Origin: a virus
Strand: one strand, 5' to 3'
DNA: 64,000 nucleotides
IMG/VR virus record: IMGVR_UViG_3300044858_003017
Under the pieces are notes generated by a model, which made no database searches, was not told the origin of the DNA, and saw only the letters and a program-made list of their open reading frames with translations. This document shows, piece by piece, positions 1 to 16,527 of this stretch (position 1 is the stretch's first letter; every line of letters starts with the position of its first letter). The translations under genes and the position numbers were made by a program.

Positions 1-1086
1 ACCATTTTTAAATACACTACCAAACAGTGGTATTATTGCAATCATTGATAACAATGCTTCTAATTTCTTACCGCGTATCCAATATACCAATCCATTAAGT
101 ACATCAATAGCATCACCATATCCTGGAATTAATCCTGCCCAATCTGCAACACTTTGAATTCTATCAACCCACGATGTTGCAGAAAAATCATATTCTTTTT
201 GATTTTTCCATTTCGTTTCATATTTTCTTTTAACGCCGGTAATATCTAACCATAAAGCTCGTGCAAATCCTGCACCCTTATATGGATCATAATTTTTTTC
301 TAAAAATTTATTGTTAAATGTAAACATTAATGTATAATCATTTTGAACGCCAGTTAATATCGGAGCTTCTTTTTCTAATTCCGAATATATTGAAATTTTA
401 TTGCCCGTTACTTTATAAGTAAATGCTGATTCTTTTGCCATTGATAGTGTCTCGGGCATAATTGTTACAGTTCCGTCTGGATGAAATCGCATAAATGCAA
501 TAGATTTACCTTTATTGTCTGTACATAAAATTTCATAATCATACCATTGATTACCCGGATTTGATCTATCAAATACATATCCCGAATTCATACGTTCGCC
601 TTTATCTGCTTTACCGTATTGTGGATCTTGCTGTACAATTTGTTTAAAGAAATTATCAGCTGCAGTGTTTTTCCATTTATTAAATGGCGTTGACTTATCG
701 AATTTACCAGTTTTAATAAATTTTAATATTTCTGCTTGTTGATTGTTTACTATGAAATTATAACTTTTTGATAAAAAATCTTTTTTAACCTTCTCAGCTG
801 ATTTTAGAATATTTAAAATATGTTGCTTATTTGATGCGGCAAATGTCTGTGCATCAGTTCTTGCAAGGTCTGACCCTGTTTTAGGATTCCACGGTGCTAT
901 TTGTTCATTTAATGATTTGATTTCTGTATCATTTAATTGACCAAATCGCAATTCATGATATTCTCGTAAAAATTTTAATATGCGAACATGTTTTTCTATG
1001 TCAATATTAGCTGATACATTATTTGCAGATAATGGTATTAATTGCGGTTTTAATGATGATTCAATAATTAAATCTAATGATTTCAT
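1..1086 (-). CDS. Large protein running off the window edge, with a pre-toxin TG-like motif (5' part only)
   Basis: Not in the ORF track. Hand translation from ATG at 1086 is open to base 1 (MKSLDLIIES...DWAGLIPGYGDAIDVLNGLVYWIRGKKLEALLSMIAIIPLFGS). A late-type motif lies at 1106-1114. Confidence 0.8.
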   Translation of the reverse strand, partial: MKSLDLIIESSLKPQLIPLSANNVSANIDIEKHVRILKFLREYHELRFGQLNDTEIKSLNEQIAPWNPKTGSDLARTDAQTFAASNKQHILNILKSAEKVKKDFLSKSYNFIVNNQQAEILKFIKTGKFDKSTPFNKWKNTAADNFFKQIVQQDPQYGKADKGERMNSGYVFDRSNPGNQWYDYEILCTDNKGKSIAFMRFHPDGTVTIMPETLSMAKESAFTYKVTGNKISIYSELEKEAPILTGVQNDYTLMFTFNNKFLEKNYDPYKGAGFARALWLDITGVKRKYETKWKNQKEYDFSATSWVDRIQSVADWAGLIPGYGDAIDVLNGLVYWIRGKKLEALLSMIAIIPLFGSVFKNG

Positions 1087-1116: not shown

Positions 1117-1464
1117 TTACTTCCAAAAGAGTTGGACTAAAATAAGTGATAGCGCTAGCAATAACGATACCGATGTTTTTAAATTAACAGCTTCGCCTTT
1201 AAACATGTATGTCATAATGGTAAATACAATGATGCCGGCTACAAAAGATGTAAAACGACCAGGCCAGAATTGTCCGCCATACCCGGATACTGCATATCGC
1301 GTTGCTTCCATAAACGCCCATGTTATGGGAACTCCTAATAACATCAATGCAAATTTATATGTTCTAGCCCATTGCCATAATAAAGGACCATTTACTTGAA
1401 CCCAAACGACAATTTGGCCAAGAAAAAATATCAATAAAGATATTACAACGTGTTTATAATTCAT
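1117..1464 (-). CDS. Small 4-TM membrane protein, SMR/DMT-like
   Basis: 115 aa with four hydrophobic segments; MFKGEAVNLK before the last TM resembles DMT/SMR; TAATG overlap with the upstream gene. Confidence 0.6.
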   Translation of the reverse strand: MNYKHVVISLLIFFLGQIVVWVQVNGPLLWQWARTYKFALMLLGVPITWAFMEATRYAVSGYGGQFWPGRFTSFVAGIIVFTIMTYMFKGEAVNLKTSVSLLLALSLILVQLFWK

Positions 1465-2141
1465 TATTCAGATTGATTTGTTGCGTATTTTATTCCCATG
1501 ATTGTTCCAATAATACTAAATGCGTTGGTAAGCAATATTCCAAATATGTTTGACCAAGCTGCACTTATAACTTGAGTATCTTTTCCAACAATCAAAGTAA
1601 ATACATATACGCCTGTGGTAATGACGCCAACGCCGACAATTACATAAAGTGCAACTTTAACTATGGTTGAAATAAGTTCTGTTTGATTGCGCTTTTGTAA
1701 TAAATCCAAATCATTTTCTGCATTTTGTTTTGCAGCCTCTGCTTCTAATTTTGATTGTTCAGCACGTACCATTTCTACTCGTAACTCTTCCGTTAAACGA
1801 ATGTTAGTTGTTTTCCATTCATTCAACTCTTTATTTTGTTGTTCAAATGCCGTTTTTGATTGTTCAACATTTTCTAAGGTATCTTGTAACTCAGTTAATA
1901 TTCTTTGATTTTCATCATTCAATGAAGTCAATTCTTCATTTTGTTTTTGAATCTTTTTAGTCATCTCCAGACGCTTCTTTCGTTTTTCTGCGTCTTTAGA
2001 TTCACATTCTTTCAAATACTCTTTAAAGTCTTCATCATCTTCTCGTTCAATAAGCTTTGTAATATTGCCTTCGAGACCAATACCTTTTTTCTGATAAAGT
2101 TCAATTAACTGTTTTTTAGTATTGTCATCAATTTTAATCAT
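1464..2141 (-). CDS. Coiled-coil protein with two C-terminal TM helices (candidate output or partner of the two-component system)
   Basis: Long E/K/Q/N heptad-rich region followed by two hydrophobic helices; ATGA overlap with the response regulator. Confidence 0.7.
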   Translation of the reverse strand: MIKIDDNTKKQLIELYQKKGIGLEGNITKLIEREDDEDFKEYLKECESKDAEKRKKRLEMTKKIQKQNEELTSLNDENQRILTELQDTLENVEQSKTAFEQQNKELNEWKTTNIRLTEELRVEMVRAEQSKLEAEAAKQNAENDLDLLQKRNQTELISTIVKVALYVIVGVGVITTGVYVFTLIVGKDTQVISAAWSNIFGILLTNAFSIIGTIMGIKYATNQSE

Positions 2142-2575
2142 TTATAAATTTTAAATGGTGCTGTTCTATTTTTATAACCATCATAGTCTTTTCTAAAGTC
2201 TTCTAATCTAGGTTCTATATCATCTGATTTGATAATCCAAAACTGCGCTCCTACTTGTATAGCACGAGCTTGCTCTTCTGATTCATTTGATGATGAAATG
2301 ATTCCAATGACAACTTGATTGCCATATTCAAAATTAATTTTTCGTATCAATTCGATGCCATCAAATGAACTACCAATTATATTTAAATCAACAAATACGC
2401 ATTCTGGTTTTTCATCCGAACCACCATCATTAAACCATCGTTTAAATTTCTTTTCCGCCTCATCTGCACTACTAAGTGACTGCAATGATAAACTTATATC
2501 AAGCAATGAACATGCATCTTCAAACACTAAATGGAATAAATCCTCATCATCTACTAACAAAATTGAATCAATCAT
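2138..2575 (-). CDS. Single-domain response regulator (CheY-like receiver)
   Basis: ILLVDD acidic pocket (D9, D10), VFVDLN phosphoacceptor D63, IISSS (S94), WIIK (K116); no output domain. Confidence 0.93.
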   Translation of the reverse strand: MIDSILLVDDEDLFHLVFEDACSLLDISLSLQSLSSADEAEKKFKRWFNDGGSDEKPECVFVDLNIIGSSFDGIELIRKINFEYGNQVVIGIISSSNESEEQARAIQVGAQFWIIKSDDIEPRLEDFRKDYDGYKNRTAPFKIYK

Positions 2576-2584
2576 CTCTTTTCT

Positions 2585-3997
2585 TTATTTTACTTTTATT
2601 TTTATTTTAGTTCCAATTTCATTTTCCTCACATTCCATATCAAATCCATGCTCTTTTAATATAGCAAAAGATATGTTTAATCCAAGGCCAATTTCATCAT
2701 TATTTTCTTTCGAAACCGATTTTAAATGTTTTTTAAATTCTTTATTTGTCATACCAATTCCATTGTCTTGTACTATGATATGATTCCCTTCTATAAATAT
2801 CGATACGGTTTTGTTTTCGCTGTTATTGTATTTCAATCCGTTCTTAACTAAATTCTCAATTGCATTGCAAAATAATATTGAATTAACTGGTAATACTCCT
2901 AATTCTGAAATTGAAACTTGTTTAGCATAAGATGTCTTTTCAAAATAGTCATTTAATAATTGCGTAACATCTTGTTCGTCCGTATCAAAATCTACAGTAC
3001 GTTTAACTAGATTAGTAAATTCATATACGCTTTTATAAACTCGTTGTGTATGATTTAATCCTTCGCGTACCATTTTAAGTGACCCTTCAATCTTAAGTTG
3101 TTTGATAGTATCCACAGGTAATCTTTTTTCTAATGACGATATCCCACGTGGTATGTATGTGTTGATACCAGAGTGCATATCGTGCCTAATAATTCGCGCA
3201 GCATATTCTAAGTAGGTGTTTTTAGTATTTATATCCGCCAACTGTCTAATTATTTCTTTGTCTTGACCTTTAATTGTTTTTCGTTGGAATAAAATCATAA
3301 TACCTAAAAACATAAGTAAAATAGTAATACCCGCGCCAATCAAGTAATTATTTAATTTCTTCGCATCATCTTTTAATTTAACTGCTTCAACTTTCATTTT
3401 TTCTTCTTTAACAGTTAAATCAATGATTGTCTTTTCTTTGCCTAAATTCTTAATAGATTCATCCTTCGCTTTAATTACTTCGGGACTAGCATGACTTCTA
3501 ATAAGTGCTTCTTTTTCTTTGATTAGTTTTTCTATTTGGCCTTCAATCTCTTGTGCTAATTTCTTCATGTCCGTTGGACTCACATTTTCAAAAGACTTTG
3601 GTATACTTTGTAAAAATTCTTTATCGCTTTGCAAACTTGCTGCTATATCAGCTGGCACTTCTTCTTCAAATACAACTTCGGGTTCTAATTTTACAATTTC
3701 AACATGTGCCTTTACTCGTTCAAAATACCAATCAGCTCCTTCATACATGTCTCGTTGTCTAAACGCTTTACCCAATTGTCTACATATGTCAGCTTCATTC
3801 TTAGTAATATTGCGTTTTGATTTTTGTAAATCATCAATTCCAACTTTGTTAATTAAAGCTGTTATCTGCGGGTCTTCGGGACATGTAGGTATTCCTTTAA
3901 CCCAAACAATTGATTGTTCTGGATCGATTATTCTTGTTTGTGACGTAACGTTAATGGTTACGCATAATAATAATATCGTTAATAATAAATGTTTCAT
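2585..3997 (-). CDS. Sensor histidine kinase 2 (signal peptide, extracytoplasmic domain, TM, HisKA-like, HATPase)
   Basis: Likely start MKHLLL at 3997 (ATGA overlap). H-box RHDMHSG, N-box ENLVKNGLKY, G1 DNGIGM, G2 GLGLNI; TM YLIGAGITILLMFLGIMILF. Confidence 0.92.
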   Translation of the reverse strand: MKHLLLTILLLCVTINVTSQTRIIDPEQSIVWVKGIPTCPEDPQITALINKVGIDDLQKSKRNITKNEADICRQLGKAFRQRDMYEGADWYFERVKAHVEIVKLEPEVVFEEEVPADIAASLQSDKEFLQSIPKSFENVSPTDMKKLAQEIEGQIEKLIKEKEALIRSHASPEVIKAKDESIKNLGKEKTIIDLTVKEEKMKVEAVKLKDDAKKLNNYLIGAGITILLMFLGIMILFQRKTIKGQDKEIIRQLADINTKNTYLEYAARIIRHDMHSGINTYIPRGISSLEKRLPVDTIKQLKIEGSLKMVREGLNHTQRVYKSVYEFTNLVKRTVDFDTDEQDVTQLLNDYFEKTSYAKQVSISELGVLPVNSILFCNAIENLVKNGLKYNNSENKTVSIFIEGNHIIVQDNGIGMTNKEFKKHLKSVSKENNDEIGLGLNISFAILKEHGFDMECEENEIGTKIKIKVK

Positions 3998-4629
3998 GGC
4001 GTTGGTAGTATTTGATAAGGGAATTGAAATTGAGTTGGTCTCCATCTATCTTTATAATATGTCAACCAATCTTCATTAGGTTCATCTTTTATCTCTCGAT
4101 TATAATTTTTCCAATATGGATCATCAGAAACTGGTCCGCGTCTGGCTATAGAAAAATTACCAGTTCTTCTATGTCCAACAATTATATAAGAAGCTAGGTC
4201 TATTGCCATAACTGTAGATTTAGTATATGAATAATATATGATTGCATTGCTAGATGCCGTATTATACAACCATGTACTAACGCTATCATATCTTTGTTGC
4301 AAACTATCAAAATTACTAAATTTATTTTTAAGAGTAAATTGTAAATTGTTTGCAACAGCTTGTAGACTATCGATTACTAATTGTTGTTTGTCTTGTTGTT
4401 TTATCATTTCTAGATTAAGACTATCAATTATTGTTTGTTGTTTAGCAATATTGTTTTTATAAAATGCAACTCTGCTTCGTTGGTTTGCAAGAAGAAGTTC
4501 TATATCTTGATTTTGTTCAACGGTATAAATAACTACAGAATCGCCTTTTAATATAGTTTGTACTGGATAGTTTTGCGATAATGATATAAAAGATATTGCA
4601 ATAAGTAATATCGTCAATAACCGTTTCAT
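3994..4629 (-). CDS. Exported coiled-coil protein between the two kinases
   Basis: Sec-type leader MKRLLTILLIAISFISLS|Q and a Q-rich coiled coil; ATGA overlaps on both sides. Confidence 0.75.
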   Translation of the reverse strand: MKRLLTILLIAISFISLSQNYPVQTILKGDSVVIYTVEQNQDIELLLANQRSRVAFYKNNIAKQQTIIDSLNLEMIKQQDKQQLVIDSLQAVANNLQFTLKNKFSNFDSLQQRYDSVSTWLYNTASSNAIIYYSYTKSTVMAIDLASYIIVGHRRTGNFSIARRGPVSDDPYWKNYNREIKDEPNEDWLTYYKDRWRPTQFQFPYQILPTP

Positions 4630-5531
4630 GTCAACCTTATTTTTAATTTAGTTCCAATATTGTTTTTTTCACATGAAATTCCAAATCCATGTTCTTGTAG
4701 TATAGCAATACAAATATTCAATCCCAATCCACTGCCAGTTTCTTTTTGTCCTTCTTTTCTAGTATATGGTTGAGATAATGTATCAAATTCTTGTTGAGTT
4801 ATGCCGCGGCCATTATCTTGCAAAATCAACAAATCATTTTCCATATATATCTTAACTAATTTTAGATCACTATCGTTGTATTTTAATCCATTGCGAATTA
4901 AATTATCTAATGCTGTACAAAACAATGATTCATTAACTGATACAATGGGTAATTCGTCAATGATAACTTGACTTTTATATGAAGTAGATGCTAGATAATT
5001 TTCTAAGATAGTTTTTAAATTGTGATCGGCTCTATCTAATACGGCATCTTTTTTTACTAGATTAGTAAATTCATAAACACCTTTATAAACTTTTTGGGAA
5101 TGAGCAAGTCCTTCCTTTATCATTTTCAATGGTGCTTCAATTTTTAATTCTGCGATTACAGAATCAGGTACTCTGCGTTCTAAAGATGATATGCCTCTCG
5201 GAATATAAGTATTAATACCCGAATGCATATCGTGTCTAAGTATCTTTGCTGCATGTTCCAGATATGTATTTTGTTTGCGTACTTCGCCAACCTGATTATT
5301 AATCTCTTCAATCATCCGTCGTTTTTGTAATAAGAATTCAGATGCAAAAACAAAGAATGGAAATATAAATCCAATTACACAACCATATCCAAATTTGCTT
5401 AGTTCATAACTAGTAGAACACCAACCCATAATGGCACAAATTTGTACAATAAAGAAAATAATCATAATAGCACCAGTAATTCCTAGTGCTATTTTTGATT
5501 TTAATGATATGCCCGATAATGCATTGCGCAT
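4626..5531 (-). CDS. Sensor histidine kinase 1 (2 TM, short loop, HisKA-like, HATPase)
   Basis: Likely start MRNALS at 5531 (TAATG overlap with the amidase stop). H-box RHDMHSG, N-box DNLIRNGLKY, G1 DNGRGI, G2 GSGLGLNI. Confidence 0.92.
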   Translation of the reverse strand: MRNALSGISLKSKIALGITGAIMIIFFIVQICAIMGWCSTSYELSKFGYGCVIGFIFPFFVFASEFLLQKRRMIEEINNQVGEVRKQNTYLEHAAKILRHDMHSGINTYIPRGISSLERRVPDSVIAELKIEAPLKMIKEGLAHSQKVYKGVYEFTNLVKKDAVLDRADHNLKTILENYLASTSYKSQVIIDELPIVSVNESLFCTALDNLIRNGLKYNDSDLKLVKIYMENDLLILQDNGRGITQQEFDTLSQPYTRKEGQKETGSGLGLNICIAILQEHGFGISCEKNNIGTKLKIRLT

Positions 5532-6208
5532 TACAATGTTTTCAGCATTGCAATCATACGAGGACAAGGATATATATCCGATTTATCCTTACGATATGAA
5601 TTGTGCGTATACACACCTACTTCTCCTTTCAAAGCTCGCGTTGATACTGACCACATATCTTCTTCTCGGTATGTTAAGTCAATGCCGTAAGTGTCTCGCC
5701 AATGTAACAATAATTGTTTAACAGATTCAATTTGTGCATCTGTATACGCATGATAATATTTATGTCCTTTATATGGCGTTTCTAATTCCGTCACTTGATC
5801 TGCAGGAATTTCTCGATCCACATAATTATAAAATTTATCTCCAACTTTGTCTAATCCACCCCAGTTACAAATTTCAATTCCAATTGATATCTTATCTAAT
5901 GCTTTGTAAGGAACGCCCTTAGCTTTAAACACATCTTGTTTAAGTCCTAAATGATATCCCCAATGCTTAGATGAAAATGCTTGACAAATTTCTCCGTCGT
6001 ATGTATCTTTTGATACGCCTTTACCAGATATAGTAACGCAAGTTGCAATTCGTCCTCTATCATCATTAGCCCACATTTTAATTGTGCCTGGGCCTGATGA
6101 ATTACCTGCGGTGTGATGCAATACGATTTGTTTCTTTTCTGTTGCTTCTTTAATATACTGTGACTCTGGTAATGGAACTTGTTTAATTTTTGATGTATCT
6201 AAACTCAT
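5531..6208 (-). CDS. N-acetylmuramoyl-L-alanine amidase (Amidase_2-type endolysin)
   Basis: IVLHHTAG, SIGIEICN, YTDAQIES, H..RKDKSDIYP zinc-amidase motifs. Confidence 0.88.
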   Translation of the reverse strand: MSLDTSKIKQVPLPESQYIKEATEKKQIVLHHTAGNSSGPGTIKMWANDDRGRIATCVTISGKGVSKDTYDGEICQAFSSKHWGYHLGLKQDVFKAKGVPYKALDKISIGIEICNWGGLDKVGDKFYNYVDREIPADQVTELETPYKGHKYYHAYTDAQIESVKQLLLHWRDTYGIDLTYREEDMWSVSTRALKGEVGVYTHNSYRKDKSDIYPCPRMIAMLKTL

Positions 6209-6210
6209 AT

Positions 6211-6639
6211 TTAACCTTTATTTCGTAAACCTTTATGTAAATCAATTTTATCTAAAATTTCTAATAAAACTTTTCCTTCAATCAATCCCAACATTGATGC
6301 ATTCTTTAATGCACTAACAAGTTGAAATATTATGAATGGCAATAAAATGGTTTCACTCAACCACCCCGTACCCGGAAAACCTTTTTCGATAACTAACAAT
6401 ACCGTTAAAAACATAATCCATACTACCAATGTTCTCAAAACTTTAAGAGCTTTAAATGTTTTGAAGCCTTCATTTTTAGTACCAGCAATTACTCCAAAGA
6501 ACCCATCTGTCATTACTACTGCAACCAATGCCAAATACTGATCTGAATTTGACATTGCCAAGTTGAAGAAATATGTACAAATGAATGCCATCAATGTACT
6601 TGCCGAATATATTATCGCCGATAATGTTGTTGTTTTCAT
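6211..6639 (-). CDS. Phage holin (holin 4-like)
   Basis: 3-4 TM helices, D..FGVIAG and SALKNA motifs, basic C-terminus; lies between two peptidoglycan enzymes. Confidence 0.75.
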   Translation of the reverse strand: MKTTTLSAIIYSASTLMAFICTYFFNLAMSNSDQYLALVAVVMTDGFFGVIAGTKNEGFKTFKALKVLRTLVVWIMFLTVLLVIEKGFPGTGWLSETILLPFIIFQLVSALKNASMLGLIEGKVLLEILDKIDLHKGLRNKG

Positions 6640-7229
6640 TATTTAACGTCCGCAGATTCAATCAATGTATAAGTAAAAGAATTTCCATGGATGTCTTTGG
6701 CTTTACGACAAATTGTCATAAATTCTTCAAAATCTTTAACTCTTTTAAATACTTGACAACCTTCAGACCAATTTTCAACATAAGTTGAATCTGCACCCGC
6801 TTTGTGAATGTTGATTCCAAAAACACCTTCATCCACTTTGTTTTCAGCGTATGTCATGTTGCGATCTGCATCACGAAATACTTTTACTGATTTATATTGT
6901 TTTAATGCTTCATACTTACCTTGATGCAAACCAATTCCGTGTGAACCTCTGTATTGACCTTCAACTAATCGAGCAACGCCTTTTGCATTGTGATATTGCT
7001 GAACACCTTTCTTACCTGGATCAGTTGTACATGGCCATGCATGAAATTTCCATTCGCCATCAACTTTATATGATACTGTCATGATATCATCAAACACGTT
7101 AGTAACTTTATCACCTGTTGCAGAATTTCGTACTCCTACAATATTCACATCATAATTTTTTGCACCTTCAAACCAAACATATCCTTTAGCTTTTACGGTA
7201 GCTTCAATTTGTTCTCTTGTATAAGACAT
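6639..7229 (-). CDS. YkuD/L,D-transpeptidase-like cysteine peptidase, probable second endolysin
   Basis: GINIHKAG...WSEGCQV resembles the Hxx...SxGC motif; lysis gene context. Confidence 0.65.
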   Translation of the reverse strand: MSYTREQIEATVKAKGYVWFEGAKNYDVNIVGVRNSATGDKVTNVFDDIMTVSYKVDGEWKFHAWPCTTDPGKKGVQQYHNAKGVARLVEGQYRGSHGIGLHQGKYEALKQYKSVKVFRDADRNMTYAENKVDEGVFGINIHKAGADSTYVENWSEGCQVFKRVKDFEEFMTICRKAKDIHGNSFTYTLIESADVK

Positions 7230-7238
7230 TGTTAACCT

Positions 7239-7493
7239 TTATATTTCTTCGCTGTTTTCGTTATTTGATTTTTTTCCTGCAAACTTTTCTAAACCTGCAA
7301 TTCCTAAACTTCCCAATGTTACAATAACAAATGAATTGTAAATGTATTCATTTAATTTTAATTCATTACCAAAATATCCTGTTATTAAATCTACAACCAT
7401 TGCAAGTGTCATAACTGCAAATGACATAAATCCAATAATGGTTTTTTCATTGTAATCATTCGAATCTTTAAAGATTTGTTTGAATCCGCCCAT
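7239..7493 (-). CDS. Small 2-TM holin-like membrane protein
   Basis: Likely start MGGFKQ at 7493 (GGGAG SD); two TMs and a charged tail; first gene of the lysis operon. Confidence 0.6.
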   Translation of the reverse strand: MGGFKQIFKDSNDYNEKTIIGFMSFAVMTLAMVVDLITGYFGNELKLNEYIYNSFVIVTLGSLGIAGLEKFAGKKSNNENSEEI

Positions 7494-7521
7494 TATATCT
7501 CCCGTTAAATTATTACTTTCG

Positions 7522-7530
7522 TATAAATAT
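7522..7530 (-). promoter_or_regulatory. Putative late promoter heading the lysis + two-component operon
   Basis: ATATTTATA about 29 nt upstream of ATG 7493. Confidence 0.6.
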
Positions 7531-7558: not shown

Positions 7559-8707
7559 TTATTTTTTACAAACAACTAGATCTTTTTCATATGTTTCCAT
7601 AGAAACAATTGTAATTTTTAAATTACCTATTGTAAAGGTGCCGGGTTCTCCAGAATCTTGTACTATTGCTGATAAATTTTGTATAACATCAAAATCTTGT
7701 TGAGTAAATGCATTTCCATCAATTTCTACAACGATATCATTATAATCATATCTATCCAACTCAGTTAATGAATGGCAACGTTTACGTAAATCAAATTTTG
7801 TATTAGGTTGTTCTAATGTAACATATTTCATCCACTCTGCATCTGAGTATATTTGTTCGCCAAACGGTTCTAATAATTCTAATAAGTGTGCCGTACAATT
7901 TTCAATACGTATTCCAATATTATATTTTGGTGCCGATAATCGCATACCCCATTTTCTAATGAAATTTCTATTTGAATTCAATTCAATTTGCTGTGTTCGA
8001 GTTTGATATTCTTCTGAAAATCTAGATGTTTTACTAACAAAATGATAACATATTGCATCCAATGCAGTAAAACAATTCATTCCCAATAAATTCCATCGAC
8101 GAATCAAATCATCATCTTCGCAAAACATTGGATTGAATAAATTATCCATACCTCCAATTTCTAATAACTTGATGCGAGGCATACACATAAAAAACGTAAT
8201 ACCAGATTCAGTTTTGTTTTCATATTTAGATTTATTTGTTCTAACAAACTCGTATAACGCCCCCTTATCAAACGTCTCTAAAGATGTACCCAAATCATGT
8301 ATTAGTTTACCTGGACGTTCATGTCCTGCGAATATAGGCGGTTCTATTGTGGTATATGCAACCACATTGTTAGCATCTACATGTTTTTCTAAATTTTCAA
8401 TAAAACCAGGCGCTAATACAATATCATTATGTAAATATGCTACATAGTCGCGCGTAGCTAATTCTGCTGCTTTGTTAAATGTATCAGAAAACGTTTTGTT
8501 TTCAACTGAATAGAAATACTTTAAGTTATCATCTAATAATGTGTCTAACCATTCATGCGTTCCATCAGTTGACCCATAACTTACAAAACATATTTCTACT
8601 TCTGGATATAATGCTCTAGTTGTTTCGTAAAAATGTTTATTGTAGTCTAAATTATTTTTTAGTCCTACTAATAATGAAATGTTATTTTCCATATAATATT
8701 TGTTCAA
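7559..8707 (-). CDS. Glycosyltransferase family 2-like
   Basis: GSTDGT, YLHNDI, FCEDDD, YHFVS GT-A motifs; start may be 8692. Confidence 0.85.
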   Translation of the reverse strand: MNKYYMENNISLLVGLKNNLDYNKHFYETTRALYPEVEICFVSYGSTDGTHEWLDTLLDDNLKYFYSVENKTFSDTFNKAAELATRDYVAYLHNDIVLAPGFIENLEKHVDANNVVAYTTIEPPIFAGHERPGKLIHDLGTSLETFDKGALYEFVRTNKSKYENKTESGITFFMCMPRIKLLEIGGMDNLFNPMFCEDDDLIRRWNLLGMNCFTALDAICYHFVSKTSRFSEEYQTRTQQIELNSNRNFIRKWGMRLSAPKYNIGIRIENCTAHLLELLEPFGEQIYSDAEWMKYVTLEQPNTKFDLRKRCHSLTELDRYDYNDIVVEIDGNAFTQQDFDVIQNLSAIVQDSGEPGTFTIGNLKITIVSMETYEKDLVVCKK

Positions 8708-9557
8708 TTCGTTCTTCTAATGTATATTTAGGTTTGTATATTGATAGCATTAAACTAGGATCACATACTCTAAAAGAAACTCCAATTGGTTTTTCTAATA
8801 AATGTTTAATTCCATTCTCTGGCCGCCATTTGCTAATTTCAAACATAGTTTCAGCTAATGTATTAAATGGAGTAGCTATTCCACTTCCTAGATTCAATGC
8901 ATCAACTTGAACATCATTTTCTACAACAGTCATAACCGCTTCTACAATATCTTCCATATGGATAAAATCTCGTACTTGCGTACCATCGCCCCAAATTTCA
9001 AATTCAGAAACTTTTCTTTTAATTCTATCAATGAATGATGGGAATGGATAAGTTAAATCCTGATCTGCGCCATATCCTGAGAATGGTCTAAATACATAAA
9101 CTTTAGTTCCTTGTTCTCTAACAAATTTTGCTAAATATTCGCCTGTTAATTTAGCCCAACCATATGTATAATCTGGTAATCTAATATCATCTAAATTAAT
9201 ATCCGATTCTTTTAAATGATATTGCAATTCTGGATGTTGTAAATGTACTGGGTATGCTGCACTAGAACTAAAGTAAACTACTCTAGGTTGTTTTGTTTTT
9301 ATTACCCAGTTAAAGAACTCCGAATCAATTGATAAATCTGTTGCTACTGATAACGGTTCATTTTCAATTGTTTCTCGACCACCTACGATTGCTGCTAAAT
9401 GAATTATCAAATCAAATTTTTGAGTTGAAGTTTTAAAAAAGTCGCGACAATCGTTTCCTTCTTTTAAATCAACTCCAGTTATTTCATGTTTACCATTAAA
9501 ATAACGTAAAAAGGATCTGCCTACGAACCCCATATGGCCTGTAATTAATATTTTCAT
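8682..9557 (-). CDS. NAD-dependent epimerase/dehydratase
   Basis: LITGHMGFVG, HLAA, SSSAAY, YGWAK (YxxxK), GDGTQVRDFIH. Confidence 0.92.
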   Translation of the reverse strand: MKILITGHMGFVGRSFLRYFNGKHEITGVDLKEGNDCRDFFKTSTQKFDLIIHLAAIVGGRETIENEPLSVATDLSIDSEFFNWVIKTKQPRVVYFSSSAAYPVHLQHPELQYHLKESDINLDDIRLPDYTYGWAKLTGEYLAKFVREQGTKVYVFRPFSGYGADQDLTYPFPSFIDRIKRKVSEFEIWGDGTQVRDFIHMEDIVEAVMTVVENDVQVDALNLGSGIATPFNTLAETMFEISKWRPENGIKHLLEKPIGVSFRVCDPSLMLSIYKPKYTLEERIEQILYGK

Positions 9558-10420
9558 AAATTTTCTATAAAATTAAAAATGCTTGTATATGCATCTTGTT
9601 CAAATTGTTTATAAATCTCGTCATTCTTTTCATTTAATGTCCCAACTCGTTTTGTAGGGTGAACTTGATTATGTCCTTTTAATCTAGTTGATATATGATA
9701 TTGTGGTATATTTTTTTTAGTAAAAAACATTTCTAAACAATAATCTTCTCGAGCAAAATGTAAATCTAATGGTAAAAATGGATATGGTAAATTTCTTGCT
9801 AGTGCGGTCATATTACCATCTATCTTCAATCGGTCTAATTTAATTAAAATTGGATCGAATTGACTATTAAATTTATTTAATTCATCAATTGAAATATAAT
9901 CAGTACAATTAAATGGAGCTGGAGCTTGTTCTGGACGTATTGCGGGGCCGTTTCTAGGAAATTTATGTATCCACGGATGTTCTACATCATCCCATGTACT
10001 ATCCCACATTTTTCTAGTTGCTAATGAAATAAAATGTGGATGATCTAATTCTATGTTTGATAATAGAAAGAAATAATCTTCTGGGACTAAACAATCAGAT
10101 TCTCCCCATACAATGTATTTATAATCATATTCTGGACCGTAAATATCTCTACGGAAATCTCCTATATTATAAAATTCATCATCATTTGTTTTATATGAAA
10201 TGATTGCATTCTTTAAAACTGGATGATTTATAAATTCATTAAACATCTCTATTGGAATAACGTTGTCAGGCTTTTCTATAAATGTTTGAGCATTTAAATA
10301 TACTATTAAATCTACTGGGATAATACTATTTTGAATTGCATGCTCAACTGAATCTAATGTTTCATTTAACATTTTAGACTCATACCACATTACGTGTAAT
10401 GTATATAATATTTTATTCAT
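9554..10420 (-). CDS. Putative GT-A glycosyltransferase
   Basis: WGESDCL (ExD), REDYC; position in the glycosylation cluster. Confidence 0.55.
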   Translation of the reverse strand: MNKILYTLHVMWYESKMLNETLDSVEHAIQNSIIPVDLIVYLNAQTFIEKPDNVIPIEMFNEFINHPVLKNAIISYKTNDDEFYNIGDFRRDIYGPEYDYKYIVWGESDCLVPEDYFFLLSNIELDHPHFISLATRKMWDSTWDDVEHPWIHKFPRNGPAIRPEQAPAPFNCTDYISIDELNKFNSQFDPILIKLDRLKIDGNMTALARNLPYPFLPLDLHFAREDYCLEMFFTKKNIPQYHISTRLKGHNQVHPTKRVGTLNEKNDEIYKQFEQDAYTSIFNFIENL

Positions 10421-11277
10421 ATAATTGATTGATATAAATTAATGTGTTGTTGTGCAACATATTTGCTGTTGCATAATTCTTTTATTTCTTCCGGCGCCGT
10501 TGAATCTATTGATAAAATATTTCCATTGATATCAATTAAATACATATATCCTGGCACATCGCAACACCAACCTTCTAAAGTTGTTCTGCCTAATAAAATT
10601 CCTGCAGTAAAATGCATCATCTGTACTATGTTTTCAGTATCCCATCGTTTGTCTACATATTTAATGTTTGGATGCTTAAAGTCATAACGACTTTCACTCA
10701 TTAGATACAAATCCCAATCATTTTCAATGCATTGTTGAACTAAATGCTGAACTGCTTGAAAACGTATTGGATCTAAAACTTCTCCAACAAAAATTCCAGA
10801 ATAACGTTCTAATTTTGAAGCCTCATTGGAATTAAATCTAGTTCTATCAATTGGATTGTATATCAATGAAACTTTGGATGCTGGTATATTGTAGTCATTG
10901 ATAAGCATATCTACAATTGGTTTTCGTATTACAACATAATGTGATATTCTAGAATCCAATATCGGATCTTCAGATCTAATTTCTGAATGTATGATACTAA
11001 TTATAGGAATATTTTTAAAATGTTCCAACATAAACAAATTGACTTGCGGTTGACTTGCTACTATTATATCATATTTTTCTGTAATATCCAAATTTGTTGT
11101 ATCTAATTGTCGAACATGTTGAAGTTTTAATCGTACTTCATCCATCCAATCAATTTCTCGCAATGTGAATAATGTAACATCGTGTCCTAATGCATCTAAT
11201 TCACGTGTTAGTTCATAATGATATAATTCACTTCCGCCTAAGCCATTAGCATTCAAACAACCTAATAGTATTTTCAT
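10417..11277 (-). CDS. GT-B (GT4-like) glycosyltransferase
   Basis: GGSELY..EL...L...GHDVT, IYNPID..RF, GRTTLEG. Confidence 0.8.
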   Translation of the reverse strand: MKILLGCLNANGLGGSELYHYELTRELDALGHDVTLFTLREIDWMDEVRLKLQHVRQLDTTNLDITEKYDIIVASQPQVNLFMLEHFKNIPIISIIHSEIRSEDPILDSRISHYVVIRKPIVDMLINDYNIPASKVSLIYNPIDRTRFNSNEASKLERYSGIFVGEVLDPIRFQAVQHLVQQCIENDWDLYLMSESRYDFKHPNIKYVDKRWDTENIVQMMHFTAGILLGRTTLEGWCCDVPGYMYLIDINGNILSIDSTAPEEIKELCNSKYVAQQHINLYQSII

Positions 11278-11897
11278 ATTTTTTGTAAGATAAAATTAAT
11301 TGTATTTTGCCAAACAATCCTATATTCAGTATGACATATATCTGATAACTGCTGTATTGTGATATTATTAGAATTATGTTCGAATATAAAAAATTCTGGT
11401 CTGTATCCTAATTCATATAATCTACTAAATGCTAAAATATCCTTACCCTCGATGTCAATGCTAATAATATCAAAGTAATCAATCTTGATATCTGATACTA
11501 ATTGATCAATTGTCTTTGTTTTAATTAGTTCTTCAGTATAGTGAACATTTCTATTAGTTTCCCAATATGTTTTTTCTGAAGTTGACATTGTAGATACTTG
11601 ATTAATTGTATCTGGCTCTAAATTTCCTAAATAAATCACCGTTTCCGTTTCTTCTGAATCAATTGCATATGGATATATGATAACTTGATTATTTTCAGAA
11701 TATAATTCATTTAATTTAGATATACATTGGCTAGTAGGTTCTACTAATACGCCTTTCCATCCTAGTTTTTCAATAAAATATCTAGAATTTGAATAAGTTG
11801 TTCCGTCATTTGCACCTATATCTAATATAGATCCAATTTTATTATTGTTAGACAACTGATTAACAATAAAAAGGTCTTCTCCGTGTTGTGAATACAT
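11274..11897 (-). CDS. FkbM-family methyltransferase
   Basis: YSQHGED, LDIGANDG, W.GVLVEP, SIDIEG. Confidence 0.9.
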   Translation of the reverse strand: MYSQHGEDLFIVNQLSNNNKIGSILDIGANDGTTYSNSRYFIEKLGWKGVLVEPTSQCISKLNELYSENNQVIIYPYAIDSEETETVIYLGNLEPDTINQVSTMSTSEKTYWETNRNVHYTEELIKTKTIDQLVSDIKIDYFDIISIDIEGKDILAFSRLYELGYRPEFFIFEHNSNNITIQQLSDICHTEYRIVWQNTINFILQKI

Positions 11898-11900
11898 AAG

Positions 11901-12491
11901 TTACTTTGTTGCTACGATATATTGAAAATGTGCTTTGTGATGTAATGTTACATTCCATCCTGCGTCTACAAACATTTCTTTATATGAATCCCCATTAAAC
12001 ACCCATAAATGAAATGGTGCGTGATATGTTGGTGTTTCATAATCGGGAGATGATGCTATGATATATTTTACGCCGTTATTTAATAATTTTTTAATAAATG
12101 TGTCTGGATCTACTAAATGCTCTAATACTTCTGTACAAATTGCAATATCTGGGAATTTAATATCATCTTCGATTATAAAATCTTTGTAAAATACATTATC
12201 TGTATTTCCGCGTGTAATTGCATCTTCTACATTTGCAGGACATAAATCATAACCCCAAATTGTATTTGAAACTTTTGACTGAATCTCGCGAATTAGTCCA
12301 GCATTGCCACAACCAAAATCACAAATTGTTAAATCTTTATTTTGTTCATGATTTAATATTTGTAATAAAAAATCTTGCACTTGCAATAATCTAGGACGAT
12401 GTCCTGCTTCATTTATATGATCAACTGCTTCTCGGTCTTTATACCATTCTGCATCATGACTATGTGGTTTATCAAATGTTTTATATCTCAT
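11901..12491 (-). CDS. Class I SAM-dependent methyltransferase
   Basis: DFGCGNAG, CTEVLEHLVDP. Confidence 0.88.
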   Translation of the reverse strand: MRYKTFDKPHSHDAEWYKDREAVDHINEAGHRPRLLQVQDFLLQILNHEQNKDLTICDFGCGNAGLIREIQSKVSNTIWGYDLCPANVEDAITRGNTDNVFYKDFIIEDDIKFPDIAICTEVLEHLVDPDTFIKKLLNNGVKYIIASSPDYETPTYHAPFHLWVFNGDSYKEMFVDAGWNVTLHHKAHFQYIVATK

Positions 12492-13165
12492 AATAATTCT
12501 TTTATTTTATTAATGTCAATCATTCTTTGTGGACTATTCATATAGATTTGATATTGTTGTTGATCATATGGTGCAACAGATGCTGCATCTACATATTGTG
12601 AATCTCGTACTGCTTTGCCGTTGTCTGGATGTACATGTTCAAATATTACTTCATCAAAGTATTTAATAATATTTAAGCTATGTCCTAAATCTAACCAAAA
12701 ATTGTCAGCATACATATGAATTAAATTCTTAGGAACCATATATTCTAATTTGTCAACTATATTAGAAGTTAAACAAACTGCGGTTGGTAATTTAGCTCCT
12801 TGTAATAAATCATTACCATATGCGATGCCAACTCCATTATTTTTTTCAAAATAAGAAATAAACTTAGATTCCCAAGCTGATTGAATAACGTGATCATCGC
12901 CAAAAAACGCAATATATTTATATTGGTCTTTATATTTCATGGCAATTTGATTCAATGTTGGAATCATCCTTATTCGAGGATTCACTTCATAAATAACGCC
13001 ATCTCTTCTAGGATATTGATGATCATCATCAGAGTCTAATGCAATGCATAAATCACTATGTCCTTCTGAATGAAGTTGACAATGTTGTATAAATCGATCA
13101 ACATTTGGATATCTGACACTTTCACCAGATCTGGATGGTACTATAATTAAAATTTCTTTTTTCAT
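12488..13165 (-). CDS. GT2-like glycosyltransferase
   Basis: IIVPSR, FFGDDH, HMYADN, EHVHP. Confidence 0.75.
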   Translation of the reverse strand: MKKEILIIVPSRSGESVRYPNVDRFIQHCQLHSEGHSDLCIALDSDDDHQYPRRDGVIYEVNPRIRMIPTLNQIAMKYKDQYKYIAFFGDDHVIQSAWESKFISYFEKNNGVGIAYGNDLLQGAKLPTAVCLTSNIVDKLEYMVPKNLIHMYADNFWLDLGHSLNIIKYFDEVIFEHVHPDNGKAVRDSQYVDAASVAPYDQQQYQIYMNSPQRMIDINKIKELL

Positions 13166-13785
13166 AATGTATTGTAATAATTGTTTTGTTTTTCTTGTCG
13201 TTCAATTGTTTTAGGATGATATAGAGCGAACTCCTCCATTTCTGGCAAACTGGTCCACGTCTTATGTCCATTTAATACTTCATGGACTTTATTAATCCAT
13301 TTAATTTCTGTTTTGTTTTTCCAAATTCTCCATTGATTGTCCGGCCAATTGATCCAGCCCTGATCATTTACATTCCAGCGCCATTTTGTAATATGTTCTT
13401 GAGTAATTCCTTCTACTGTATTAACGCGTGGAACTAAAAATACATCACAATCAAAGTTTTCTTCTAATACATATGGTAATACTTCTACTAGTTTTTCATG
13501 AGGTATTTCATCTGCATCGATCTGAAAAATATAATCGCCGCTACATAAACTAGTTAACTTATTTTTCCAATCTGCAAAATGTCCTGCAAACTCACCTTTA
13601 TGCCAAGAAAATTCTTTATTAACAGAGTGTGATCGTAAAAAAGCTTCAATCTCTAAATCTCCATTTTTACTATCAAACAAGATAACAATATTGTCTTGTA
13701 TTCTTTTATGTTTAAGCAAGTGTGTAATGAGTCTTTGAATTTCTTTAAACTCATTGCACACCGTAATAGCGTATGTTATTTTCAT
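13162..13785 (-). CDS. GT2 glycosyltransferase
   Basis: YAITVCNE, FQIDADE, VHEVL. Confidence 0.88.
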   Translation of the reverse strand: MKITYAITVCNEFKEIQRLITHLLKHKRIQDNIVILFDSKNGDLEIEAFLRSHSVNKEFSWHKGEFAGHFADWKNKLTSLCSGDYIFQIDADEIPHEKLVEVLPYVLEENFDCDVFLVPRVNTVEGITQEHITKWRWNVNDQGWINWPDNQWRIWKNKTEIKWINKVHEVLNGHKTWTSLPEMEEFALYHPKTIERQEKQNNYYNTL

Positions 13786-15014
13786 ATTTTTTGCAATTTA
13801 GGTAGTTTTAACTCTAATGGTTTTGGGATAGATTCAACTCCCTCATCTACAATGTTCAATACTCGTTCATATACTGTGGCTACTGCAGTTTTAGTAAAAG
13901 TTGAATTTACAAAGTAACGTTGACGTTTTGCTAATTCTTGCCATTTTTTATAATTTTTCAAAACATCTTTCATCATTTTACCTGCAGATGCATAATCCGG
14001 AGTAAACCATTTAGCTTCTTCAATTAAAAATTCATTGCGTGCCGATGGATGAATTTCAGTTAATCCGCCTGGTAATGCACAAATAAAATCTTTTTTCAAG
14101 AAATCTACCTGTCCTGAATAGTATGGAGCAATGATTGGTTTCCCGGATGTCGAAAATTCTAATAATGGACGACCAAAACCTTCAGCTTTAGTAAATGATA
14201 TCATTGCTTTTATTTTTGGATGATTATAAAGAAGATTCATTTCTTCATCTGTTAAATCACCATGCAAAAGATATACACTTGGTAATTTTGCATTTCCAAA
14301 CATATCTCGTATTTGTGAAATTTTTGATTCAATTTCAAATCGATCTAATACAGAATATGTTGCACCACTTGTTTTTAATACGAGAGCAGGAGTATCTTTT
14401 TGATTTTTATATGTATCAAAAAAACAATGAATCAATCCACTGATATTTTTTCTATCTTCTCCTAGTTGTCCTTGTAACCAATGTCCTACCGATAAAAATG
14501 CAGTTGTTTCTGCAATTTGATCTAATATACTTAATTGGCCTGGCAATGTATTCGTATAAATTGTTTCATCAAAATATTCCGGAATAACTTGTATATTTGT
14601 TGTTATAGCTTTTCCATGTTTTTTAGATGTATTTTCAAATACTTGTTTAGTAAATTCAGTTGGAACAATAATCATTTGCATAGCATTAATTTTATCAATC
14701 CATTCTGCGGGACAAATATCACCTTCTGTTGCCGCGGTGACTCCAATATTATATTTACCAACTGCTTGAAATTCATTTGGCACGGTTATTTGTACCCAAA
14801 TATCTGGTTGATATTGTATTGGCATTGGAATAATTCTTTGTTTCCAATCTTGTGGCAATGGATATGTAAATGGTGTATGCCCCCATGGTAATGAAAGCAA
14901 TTTAATGTCCCATTCATTACCTCGTTGTTCAATAAAATTAGCAATTATTTCACGAGCATGATGTCCGTATCCCGATTGTGTTGCTACTGGTGATGCTATA
15001 ACTACTGTGCGCAT
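13782..15014 (-). CDS. GT4-like glycosyltransferase
   Basis: SGYG, DRKNI, EGFGRPLLE (Ex7E). Confidence 0.88.
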   Translation of the reverse strand: MRTVVIASPVATQSGYGHHAREIIANFIEQRGNEWDIKLLSLPWGHTPFTYPLPQDWKQRIIPMPIQYQPDIWVQITVPNEFQAVGKYNIGVTAATEGDICPAEWIDKINAMQMIIVPTEFTKQVFENTSKKHGKAITTNIQVIPEYFDETIYTNTLPGQLSILDQIAETTAFLSVGHWLQGQLGEDRKNISGLIHCFFDTYKNQKDTPALVLKTSGATYSVLDRFEIESKISQIRDMFGNAKLPSVYLLHGDLTDEEMNLLYNHPKIKAMISFTKAEGFGRPLLEFSTSGKPIIAPYYSGQVDFLKKDFICALPGGLTEIHPSARNEFLIEEAKWFTPDYASAGKMMKDVLKNYKKWQELAKRQRYFVNSTFTKTAVATVYERVLNIVDEGVESIPKPLELKLPKLQKI

Positions 15015-16498
15015 ACTATTCCTGTTTTTTCGTATTTTTTTGTTGTAACTTTATGTAATGTATATTTTGCTCTATTTTCTCGTTTAGAATCAAATAGATA
15101 ATCAATCATATGAATCATTTTTTGACCCATTTGTTCTGCCGTAAGTCCATTTTTCAAACACCAATCTCTTCCAGCTTGTCCCATCGACTCTCGAAGCGTT
15201 TCTGGAGTGTCATACCAATAGCGAATTGCATCAGCTACATCTTCAAAACAAACTCGGTCATCAAAGATATATGGCGTAGCAGGCGATCCTTGAAGTGATC
15301 GGTTACTTGGAAATACTGGTTTGGCCCATATCCCATGGTGTTTAAATTTACCCATATGATTTGTTGAAAAATCTCCATCAAATCTTATCCATTCATCATT
15401 TTCATCTACAAAACCACATTGATCTTGCAATCCACCGGTAACATTATTAACGATAGGAGTTCCTGACAACATTGCTTCAGTTGAACTAAGTCCCCAACCT
15501 TCGTTGCTACCAATATTAACTACCACATCTGCAACATTATACAATGCATTTAACTCTTGTGGAGTCATTTTTTGTTCTGAAAATAATATTTTGCAATTAG
15601 GTGCCAATGTTTTATAAATTGCACGCAAATCTGTACCATTTTCGTCTACAACTTGCGTGTGCATTAAAAGTGCAACTTTATTTCGTGTAGCTTCTGGCAA
15701 TCCGTCTACAAAATGTTTGAATGCTAATATCAAATCACCTGGTTGTTTTCTTCGTATATTTCGATTATTCCAAAATACTACAAAATCAACATCATTTTTA
15801 GTTTTGATATTTTCATACATTCGTTTGTATGCTGCGTCATCTTGCGGCAATGGCTTAAACGTGTTATGATTCAATCCGTGTGGAACAAATCCTGTAATAA
15901 TTTGGTTCCATTTTACATCTTGCGGTACAGAATCATTTGAATCATAATTTACGACATCAAACCCATTTTGAGTAAGTACTTCTCGATGAATGTTATCTGA
16001 CTGCTTGCTAATACCCATAATTAAATCGCAACTTGCATAATATGGTGCGTTCCACATCGGATACGGCAAATCATCCCAGATTGAATAATATACAATAGGA
16101 ATATTATAAGTTGTTTTAATTTCATGTTCAATTGCATAAAGCCAAACCCAATATCTTGGATCAGTGAAATGAAATATTGCATCTGGTTTTTCTTGATTGA
16201 TGATTGCAAATAATATATTGCGGTCGCCATATCCGCTCCACGGAATTATTTTAACAGACGCATCAGCTACACCAGTTTCTTGTGCAACATGTGCAGATAA
16301 ATCAACACCTTGCCCGTGTTCGGGATGATGTAGAGCTGCTCCTAATTGTACCCAATCATAATGATGTACGGTATTAAAAACTATTTCTCGGCTAATTGTG
16401 CCAATGCCAGACGGCAAACGAAAATCGTCAGCTAACAATAAAATTTTCTTTTTCTTAGGCTTGTTCGGGTCGAACTTTTGTAACTTTGGTAACTCCAT
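15002..16498 (-). CDS. GT4-like glycosyltransferase
   Basis: NRNIRRK, EGWGLSSTEAM (Ex7E), TGGLQD. Confidence 0.88.
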   Translation of the reverse strand: MELPKLQKFDPNKPKKKKILLLADDFRLPSGIGTISREIVFNTVHHYDWVQLGAALHHPEHGQGVDLSAHVAQETGVADASVKIIPWSGYGDRNILFAIINQEKPDAIFHFTDPRYWVWLYAIEHEIKTTYNIPIVYYSIWDDLPYPMWNAPYYASCDLIMGISKQSDNIHREVLTQNGFDVVNYDSNDSVPQDVKWNQIITGFVPHGLNHNTFKPLPQDDAAYKRMYENIKTKNDVDFVVFWNNRNIRRKQPGDLILAFKHFVDGLPEATRNKVALLMHTQVVDENGTDLRAIYKTLAPNCKILFSEQKMTPQELNALYNVADVVVNIGSNEGWGLSSTEAMLSGTPIVNNVTGGLQDQCGFVDENDEWIRFDGDFSTNHMGKFKHHGIWAKPVFPSNRSLQGSPATPYIFDDRVCFEDVADAIRYWYDTPETLRESMGQAGRDWCLKNGLTAEQMGQKMIHMIDYLFDSKRENRAKYTLHKVTTKKYEKTGIVCAQ

Positions 16499-16518: not shown

Positions 16519-16527
16519 TATAAATAT
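16519..16527 (-). promoter_or_regulatory. Putative late promoter heading the glycosylation operon
   Basis: ATATTTATA about 21 nt upstream of ATG 16498. Confidence 0.6.

Follow-up and report, generated by a model that had tools for sequence, protein, structure and literature searches.

A conserved phage kinase-receiver-hairpin module and its possible role in lysis timing

A lysis cassette and a two-component system in one ten-gene unit

We analyzed a 64,000-nucleotide (nt) stretch of viral DNA (IMG/VR record IMGVR_UViG_3300044858_003017; hereafter the window), in which every gene lies on the minus strand. Ten of these genes, running from 7493 to 1117, follow one another with overlaps or gaps of at most 9 nt behind a promoter-like motif (ATATTTATA, 7522-7530, minus strand). 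Four candidate lysis genes (g01 to g04) come first, followed by two histidine kinases (HK1 and HK2) with an exported protein (g06) encoded between them, a receiver-only response regulator (RR), a coiled-coil protein with two transmembrane (TM) helices (g09), and a four-TM protein (g10). A preliminary description of this DNA had listed the same ten open reading frames (ORFs), and we recovered their coordinates, order, TAATG and ATGA overlaps, and short gaps.

The first gene, g01 (7239-7493), encodes an 84-residue protein with two TM helices and a charged C-terminal tail, features that resemble those of class II holins; it matched no Pfam or PHROG family. Its true start is the ATG at 7493, which is preceded by GGGAGA, and a 9-nt gap separates it from g02 (6639-7229), which overlaps g03 by 1 nt. 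The g02 product is likely a cell wall peptidase. It matched phrog_3000 (9e-37) and the endolysin family phrog_33083 (3.7e-10), residues H142, S155, G157, and C158 are invariant among its relatives, and its homologues in two related phages (L211 and L044) bear a PG_binding_1-like N-terminal domain. The "YkuD-type" label that it had been given agrees with the invariant residues and with its AlphaFold2 (AF2) model (pLDDT, 83), for which Foldseek returned mainly YkuD-fold L,D-transpeptidases, DpaA, and Pgp2; these matches were weak (E, ∼1e-3; TM-score, 0.3 to 0.46) and Pfam gave none, so that we keep the label as a tentative one. The holin gene g03 (6211-6639) matched Phage_holin_4_1 (PF05105; 23.9 bits against a gathering threshold of 22.2) and the holin family phrog_199. 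After a 2-nt gap comes g04 (5531-6208), an N-acetylmuramoyl-L-alanine amidase and thus the endolysin of the unit (Amidase_2, 44.8 bits against a gathering threshold of 26, 1.9e-11; phrog_1794 amidase). No GH19 endolysin was found elsewhere in the window.

The amidase gene is joined by a TAATG overlap to HK1 (4626-5531), which itself overlaps g06 through ATGA. HK1 consists of two TM helices connected by a loop of ∼10 residues and followed directly by the dimerization and histidine phosphotransfer (DHp) and catalytic ATP-binding (CA) domains, with neither a cytoplasmic nor a periplasmic sensor domain. The 211-residue g06 protein (3994-4629) begins with a signal-like segment and matched no Pfam or PHROG family; its gene overlaps that of HK2 (2585-3997) through ATGA. 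HK2 has a signal-like TM1, ∼200 extracytoplasmic residues, TM2, DHp, and CA. Pfam detected HATPase_c in both kinases (44.6 and 43.5 bits), whose cores are paralogues with 51% identity. The DHp domain aligns to that of the HisKA-type kinase of known structure 8f71, with the histidine in an HD context. A 9-nt gap leads from HK2 to RR (2138-2575), in which Response_reg is the sole domain (35.5 bits; cut-off, 30.2) and for which 3ilh and 4zyl were the best structural matches by sequence. RR is in turn joined by an ATGA overlap to g09 (1464-2141), which overlaps g10 (1117-1464), the last gene of the unit, by 1 nt. The g10 product, a 115-residue protein with four hydrophobic segments and no Pfam or PHROG match, appears to be accessory.

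Comparison with relatives confirmed that the catalytic residues reported as intact are conserved well beyond the window. The H-box AAKILRHDMHSGINTYIPRG (RHDMHSGINTY), the N-box (NGLKYN), and the G1 (DNGxG) and G2 (GLGL) motifs are conserved in 47 distinct kinase cores, and D9, D10, D63, S94, and K116 are invariant in 41 receiver sequences, which have a mean column identity of 85%. These patterns support an intact two-component system under strong purifying selection. In HK2, the H, N, and G1 boxes are intact and a 3-residue gap precedes G2, in the ATP lid, compared with all single-kinase relatives; this gap might favor phosphatase over kinase activity.

The motif at the head of the unit recurs across the window. 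Of the ten minus-strand copies of ATATTTATA, eight lie shortly before the start of a gene, the tail sheath gene being one of these. The motif belongs to a wider ATATTTAT family, which has 21 minus-strand copies, the one at 7522-7530 among them. In the form ATATTTAT(A/T), the motif lies 12 to 30 nt before many start codons of structural genes (sheath etc.) and of other genes; its minus-strand sites include 63919, 60572, 57193, 53459, 50878, 50269, 49269, 32859, 32086, 16527, 7530, and 1114. Because the last of these copies (1107-1114) heads the following gene (1086 to 1), and so marks the start of another transcription unit, the ten-gene unit is bounded on that side. No credible terminator was found within the unit, as had been stated before: our scan returned one weak hairpin, inside HK1, a count no higher than that in shuffled sequence. 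In related phages, 21 of 29 loci carry ATATTTAT at position -12 from the first kinase gene, compared with a background frequency of 0.023 per 60 nt, and divergent hydrolase genes show the motif as TATAAATAT on the opposite strand. The ten genes thus appear to form a single unit served by the type of promoter used for structural genes, which would probably be active late.

Two copies of ATATTTATA deserve separate mention. One (2792-2800, minus strand) is located toward the 3' end of the HK2 gene, at a distance of 217 nt from the receiver gene that follows, and could be an internal promoter for RR, g09, and g10 or a chance occurrence. The other (16519-16527) precedes an extended series of genes for glycosyltransferases and NDP-sugar epimerases directly upstream of the unit (7559-16498), one gene of which matches a PHROG glycosyltransferase.

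The hairpin protein and the distribution of the module

The 225-residue g09 protein is composed of a conserved N-terminal domain (residues ∼1 to 70), a coiled coil whose length varies among relatives, and a C-terminal hairpin of two TM helices. Its AF2 model (pLDDT, 84) has an uninterrupted helix from residue 37 to residue 185 that runs into TM1 and is followed by TM2. The sequence of TM2 is near-invariant (W.N.FGILLTNAFSI.GTIMG.KYA), with a stripe of small or polar residues (G201, T205, S209, G212/T213, and G216) on one face. The protein matched no Pfam or PHROG family and no holin family. A profile search of 1.84 billion representatives recovered only 268 relatives, fusions to sensors and kinases included, and an Atlas search returned viral clusters only, of the same family and of PAS-fused forms. 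Like a holin gene, g09 is located in a lysis cassette next to an endolysin gene; unlike class II holins, its product carries ∼160 residues of cytoplasmic N-terminal domain and coiled coil before the hairpin. We conclude that g09 belongs to no known holin family, though it may work like a holin or an antiholin. A role as a spanin was rejected, since the protein lacks a signal peptide and its coiled coil, being N-terminal to the TM helices, is cytoplasmic. Complex prediction for RR and g09(1-120), run with our own alignments, gave a score of 0.27 against a mark of 0.32 and counts neither way.

The window is phage DNA, as it encodes a family-B DNA polymerase (PolB), a ribonucleotide reductase (RNR), a DnaB-like helicase, and an 832-residue tail sheath, and its nearest isolate is a phage. 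That isolate, Microcystis phage Mel-JY01, shares 45% amino acid identity in the polymerase and 51% in the sheath, and tblastn matched neither HK1 nor RR in it. Among isolated phages, megablast with 12 kb of the window found no nucleotide match, and tblastn found no match to RR and only weak CA-domain matches to HK1. Given this lack of nucleotide matches and the distant similarity to Mel-JY01, the window is part of an uncultured, distantly T4-like myophage, a freshwater phage of giant type. IMG/VR records related to it by the module are 220 to 320 kb long, and several are rated complete by CheckV. No tRNA genes were found within the window.

The host is probably a member of the Bacteroidota, to which several hints point. 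A 290-kb relative (L177) encodes a 541-residue protein with a Por_Secre_tail sorting domain of the type IX secretion system (T9SS) (G304:C1:210795-210974), the only contig of bacterial appearance on which a related locus was found belongs to a Bacteroidetes metagenome-assembled genome (MAG) and also encodes a Por_Secre_tail protein, 3ilh is the receiver's best structural match by sequence, and the sheath is partly similar to those of Flavobacterium phages. Shine-Dalgarno usage (none at 45 of 72 genes) is a weak and nondecisive clue.

Relatives of the two-component system are numerous in viral sequence. At least 590 IMG/VR stretches were matched by HK1 and at least 590 by RR, and a metagenomic protein set contained 3868 relatives of RR, the best 120 of which were all at least 84% identical to it. 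Among species genomes, RR was found in just 6 of 185,579, all of them MAGs labelled as five different phyla, a pattern that indicates mis-binned phage contigs; an orthologue occurred in 1 of 301 sampled Bacteroidota genomes. Homologues are therefore not mainly located in bacterial chromosomes, and we rejected bacteria as the module's main home.

For gene order, ORFs were clustered in 76 long loci, which yielded 41 distinct arrangements. The order histidine kinase, RR, g09 was present in all 41. Across loci, a kinase core precedes RR in 142 of 146 and g09 follows RR in 140 of 141. Kinase, receiver, and hairpin protein, as traced through these sequences, are a conserved, essentially phage-only trio. 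The gene order supports the view that a receiver devoid of a DNA-binding output is locked to the coiled-coil hairpin protein, and g09 is likely the output of the receiver.

What feeds the trio differs among phages. In most relatives, the kinase has two TM helices, a GAF domain, and one or two PAS domains, so that sensing takes place inside the cell. Some have soluble PAS or GAF kinases and some a short two-TM kinase like HK1, and a minority carry the additional pair of g06 and a kinase with an ecto-domain. A kinase with an HK2-like ecto-domain comes after g06 in 26 of 33 g06-bearing loci; this association, and the absence of a lipobox, make a role as a spanin unlikely for g06. The preliminary proposal that the system senses envelope or extracellular cues thus fits the variant in the window, with its two-TM HK1, ecto-domain HK2, and exported g06, and does not extend to most relatives. 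Other genes seen beside the module in relatives are a YceI-like gene (PF04264, 2e-45) between kinase and receiver or just upstream of the kinase (L116:9468-9992, L132, and L136), a full-length Hsp70/DnaK (841 bits; cluster c10, L120:11413-13284 and other loci), a calcineurin-like phosphoesterase, and a class II tRNA-synthetase-like protein.

Both ends of g09 also occur fused to other domains. Its hairpin and coiled coil follow a GAF domain in P0137 and a PAS-PAS tandem in P0170, the latter form being present in at least 250 viral contigs. Of the 80 PAS-hairpin loci that were fetched, none had a kinase or a receiver. The PAS domain of the PAS-PAS-hairpin protein is 51% identical to that of a relay-phage kinase (L143), and the GAF domain of P0137 is 58% identical to that of another (L144). 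With such orthologous sensors on both sides, the same sensors appear to be wired to the hairpin either directly or through His-Asp transfer and the N-terminal domain. These sensor-hairpin fusions are the strongest evidence that the hairpin would be the end point of the relay. In a second kind of fusion (P0248, P0254, and others), the g09 N-terminal domain is joined to HisKA and HATPase_c. In three loci (L160, L165, and L166), the gene for such an N-domain kinase takes the place of g09, overlapping the stop of the orthologous RR behind a PAS kinase; the N-terminal domain therefore follows the receiver whatever the output.

One of these loci, L160 (CANIVF010000058.1, 5784-9090), is on the Bacteroidetes MAG contig mentioned above. 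It encodes a PAS kinase, an RR with 68% identity, and the g09 N-domain fused to HisKA-HATPase_c, with genes for a T9SS sorting-domain protein, DUF7151, HTH_34, CreD, HD, and HAD proteins downstream. The contig may be a bacterial source or sink of the module.

Association with lysis genes and competing interpretations

Hydrolase positions were tallied over 39 distinct gene orders; the loci belong to related phages, and the counts are not phylogenetically independent. A peptidoglycan hydrolase (GH19 with PG_binding_1, g02, or Amidase_2) directly adjoins the trio in 24 of the 39 and lies within three genes of it in 27. The enzyme may be upstream and divergent, upstream and codirectional, or 11 to 15 nt downstream, often with Phage_holin_10 next to it. 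The sensor-hairpin genes have similar neighbors: 22 of 29 PAS-hairpin loci with sufficient flanking sequence have a hydrolase within 1.5 kb, a g01-type gene adjoins the hairpin gene in 47 of 80, and holin_4_1 is often adjacent. Their cassette orders include g01-hairpin-GH19-holin_4_1 and hairpin-g01-holin_4_1-GH19.

A near-isogenic comparison is provided by L211, a close relative of the window with 65 to 72% identity in g02, holin_4_1, and g10. The order in L211 is g02, PAS-hairpin, holin_4_1, g10, and g11, and that in the window is g02, holin_4_1, amidase, HK1, g06, HK2, RR, g09, g10, and g11. Besides its place in this PAS-hairpin cassette, g10 follows the hairpin gene in 18 of 156 loci. The gene after g10 (window 1-1086; L211:3621-6131; also in L044) encodes a large protein, 836 to 837 residues in relatives, and is kept downstream of the cassette in relay phages and PAS-hairpin phages alike.

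Taken together, the gene orders amount to strong circumstantial evidence, not proof, of a link between the module and lysis. The placement of the two-component system in a lysis operon, as first described, holds for the window but is not universal, since 12 of the 39 gene orders have no recognized hydrolase within ∼10 kb of the trio. The accompanying idea of posttranslational control through a membrane protein fits the intact two-component system, the output-less receiver tied to g09, and the three architectures in which the hairpin recurs within lysis cassettes; phosphotransfer, binding, and the effect on timing are steps that we infer.

The mechanism that we propose, and to which we give about an even chance (∼0.5), runs from sensor to phosphorylated Asp63 of the receiver, to the g09 N-terminal domain, to the membrane hairpin, and finally to the time of lysis. 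The unit would join the lysis cassette (g01 to g04) to a phage-specific signaling module in a single late-type transcription unit. Inputs would enter through HK1 at the membrane, with its two TM helices and almost no loop, and through HK2 and the exported g06 at the periplasm. Both kinases would autophosphorylate on the histidine of RHDMHSGINTY and pass the phosphate on to Asp63, after which the phosphorylated receiver would dock on the N-terminal domain of g09. The resulting change would run along the long coiled-coil helix into the two-TM hairpin, which, acting in a holin-like or antiholin-like manner, would promote or delay membrane permeabilization by the holins and thereby set the time of lysis.

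Several observations weigh against a lysis output, the 12 gene orders without a nearby hydrolase among them. Genes may lie close together through common descent or because they are all expressed late, and not for reasons of function, and the counts in relatives come from related phages. The hairpin is not needed as a holin, since these phages already carry Phage_holin_4_1 or Phage_holin_10. Holins diverge fast, and a near-invariant TM2 is unusual for them; its conservation could mean that TM2 has a target in the host membrane that is itself conserved and has nothing to do with lysis. The receiver (85%) is also far more conserved than the g09 N-terminal domain (∼50 to 60%) and could have an additional partner in the host. 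Some of these points suit an explanation in which the module is a genuine signaling system for another membrane process, such as superinfection exclusion, management of ions or the proton motive force, envelope remodeling, or arrest of host division, and owes its place beside lysis genes solely to the clustering of late genes for membrane and envelope proteins. The gene orders lacking a recognized hydrolase nearby and the unholin-like TM2 agree with it, as do YceI, Hsp70, and the metallophosphatase among the neighbors and the orientation of HK2 and g06 toward the envelope. We nevertheless regard this explanation as unlikely, if a serious one: in an independent architecture the hairpin is encoded within lysis cassettes and flanked by hydrolase and holin genes, and adjacency to a hydrolase persists when the type of enzyme, its side, or its orientation changes.

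It is also conceivable that host proteins are the main targets of the receiver, which would engage in cross-talk with kinases or regulators of the host or with its motility or division machinery, and that g09 is an anchor, a scaffold, or a phosphate sink. Single-domain receivers such as CheY and DivK often have several partners, the mean identity of 85% is the highest in the module (compared with ∼50 to 65% for g09 and 57 to 77% for the kinase cores), and one variant has a second kinase core as the partner of the receiver. The phages with sensor-hairpin fusions dispense with a receiver, however, so that the hairpin and not the receiver is the retained end point, and we consider a mainly host-directed receiver improbable. 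Hardly any weight is left for the view that the two-component genes are a neutral or decaying passenger from a bacterium. The Bacteroidota MAG contig, where related kinase, RR, and N-domain-kinase genes lie beside CreD, HTH, and T9SS sorting-domain genes, is the observation in its favor; the presence of the genes in at least 590 viral contigs and the invariance of their catalytic residues contradict decay, and the genome counts given above (1 of 301 Bacteroidota genomes; 6 of 185,579 species genomes, in MAGs of five phyla) speak against it as well.

Relation to known systems and implications

The time at which a phage lyses its host is central to its fitness, and the known control of this timing consists of holin clocks and a few antiholins. 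In T4, lysis inhibition involves the holin T and the antiholins RI, a periplasmic sensor, and RIII, which is cytoplasmic (PMC11413866, PMC8385771); lysis inhibition has also been described in ICP1 (PMC7182436). The proposed relay resembles that of T4 in that a lytic T4-like phage would use dedicated proteins to read a cue and to act posttranslationally on membrane lysis proteins, shifting the time of lysis, and in that HK2 and g06 face the envelope, as RI is periplasmic. It differs in that g06, g09, and g10, which matched no Pfam or PHROG family, are unrelated in sequence to T, RI, and RIII, in that the signal would be carried by His-Asp phosphotransfer to a receiver and from there to a coiled-coil hairpin, and in that relatives of the window mostly use GAF and PAS domains to read cytoplasmic cues.

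A two-component system linked to holin- and antiholin-like membrane proteins is also found in Staphylococcus, where LytSR is tied to LrgAB/CidAB and to membrane state (PMC4830213). That system is bacterial, and LytR is a DNA-binding regulator with a LytTR domain that acts on transcription, whereas no output domain is attached to the phage receiver, whose gene is translationally coupled to that of its partner. The window kinases have two TM helices in place of the five of the LytS sensor, and the receiver lacks a second (LytTR) domain, so the phage system does not belong to the LytSR family.

Single-domain receivers operate in the CheA-CheY-FliM, DivJ/PleC-DivK-DivL, and Cph1-Rcp1 pathways. The phage receiver is likewise a lone domain that must act by protein contact, the kinases share a HisKA-like DHp domain with an HD motif with those of phytochrome type, and the variant with a second kinase after the receiver recalls DivK-DivL. 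In the phage system, however, the partner is a phage-only membrane hairpin of no known family, and the whole system is encoded by the virus. Another phage with a bacterial-type sensor histidine kinase is the Clostridioides difficile phage phiCDHM1, whose published abstract names only AgrB, AgrC, and AgrD, recently derived from the host (PMC3901668). It mentions neither a phage receiver nor a link to lysis genes, in contrast to the window, where kinase, receiver, and output are all phage borne and phage specific.

Our literature searches found no description of a phage-encoded lysis module made of a histidine kinase, a response regulator, and a membrane protein or of a PAS-coupled antiholin, in agreement with the statement in the preliminary description that such a system was not known; the only mention in a survey of jumbo phages is that of a divergent receiver associated with NAD systems (PMC7824862). 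The system in the window is a two-kinase, envelope-facing variant of the phage kinase-receiver-hairpin system.

More broadly, and at somewhat less than even odds, we suggest that in a large and abundant clade of freshwater phages the hairpin may represent a hitherto unknown class of lysis regulator with modular inputs, either a fused PAS or GAF sensor or a phosphorelay docking on the N-terminal domain, and that the window would add two kinases to this scheme, one of them reading the periplasm with an exported co-sensor. If this is true, signals from the envelope (superinfection and wall damage being examples) and membrane state could be combined to time the burst, in a phosphorelay analogue of T4 lysis inhibition, and a virus-encoded two-component relay acting on a dedicated membrane protein would constitute a new, signal-based lysis decision for a lytic phage. 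The natural forms make up a series, in which the sensor is fused to the hairpin, a sensor-kinase is combined with receiver and hairpin, or the receiver is followed by a second kinase; they provide compact, modular parts with which signal-triggered lysis might be engineered. Lake metagenomes commonly contain the system, in hundreds of viral contigs and with receiver variants in the thousands, and it could therefore shape the burst timing and the mortality of abundant freshwater bacteria.

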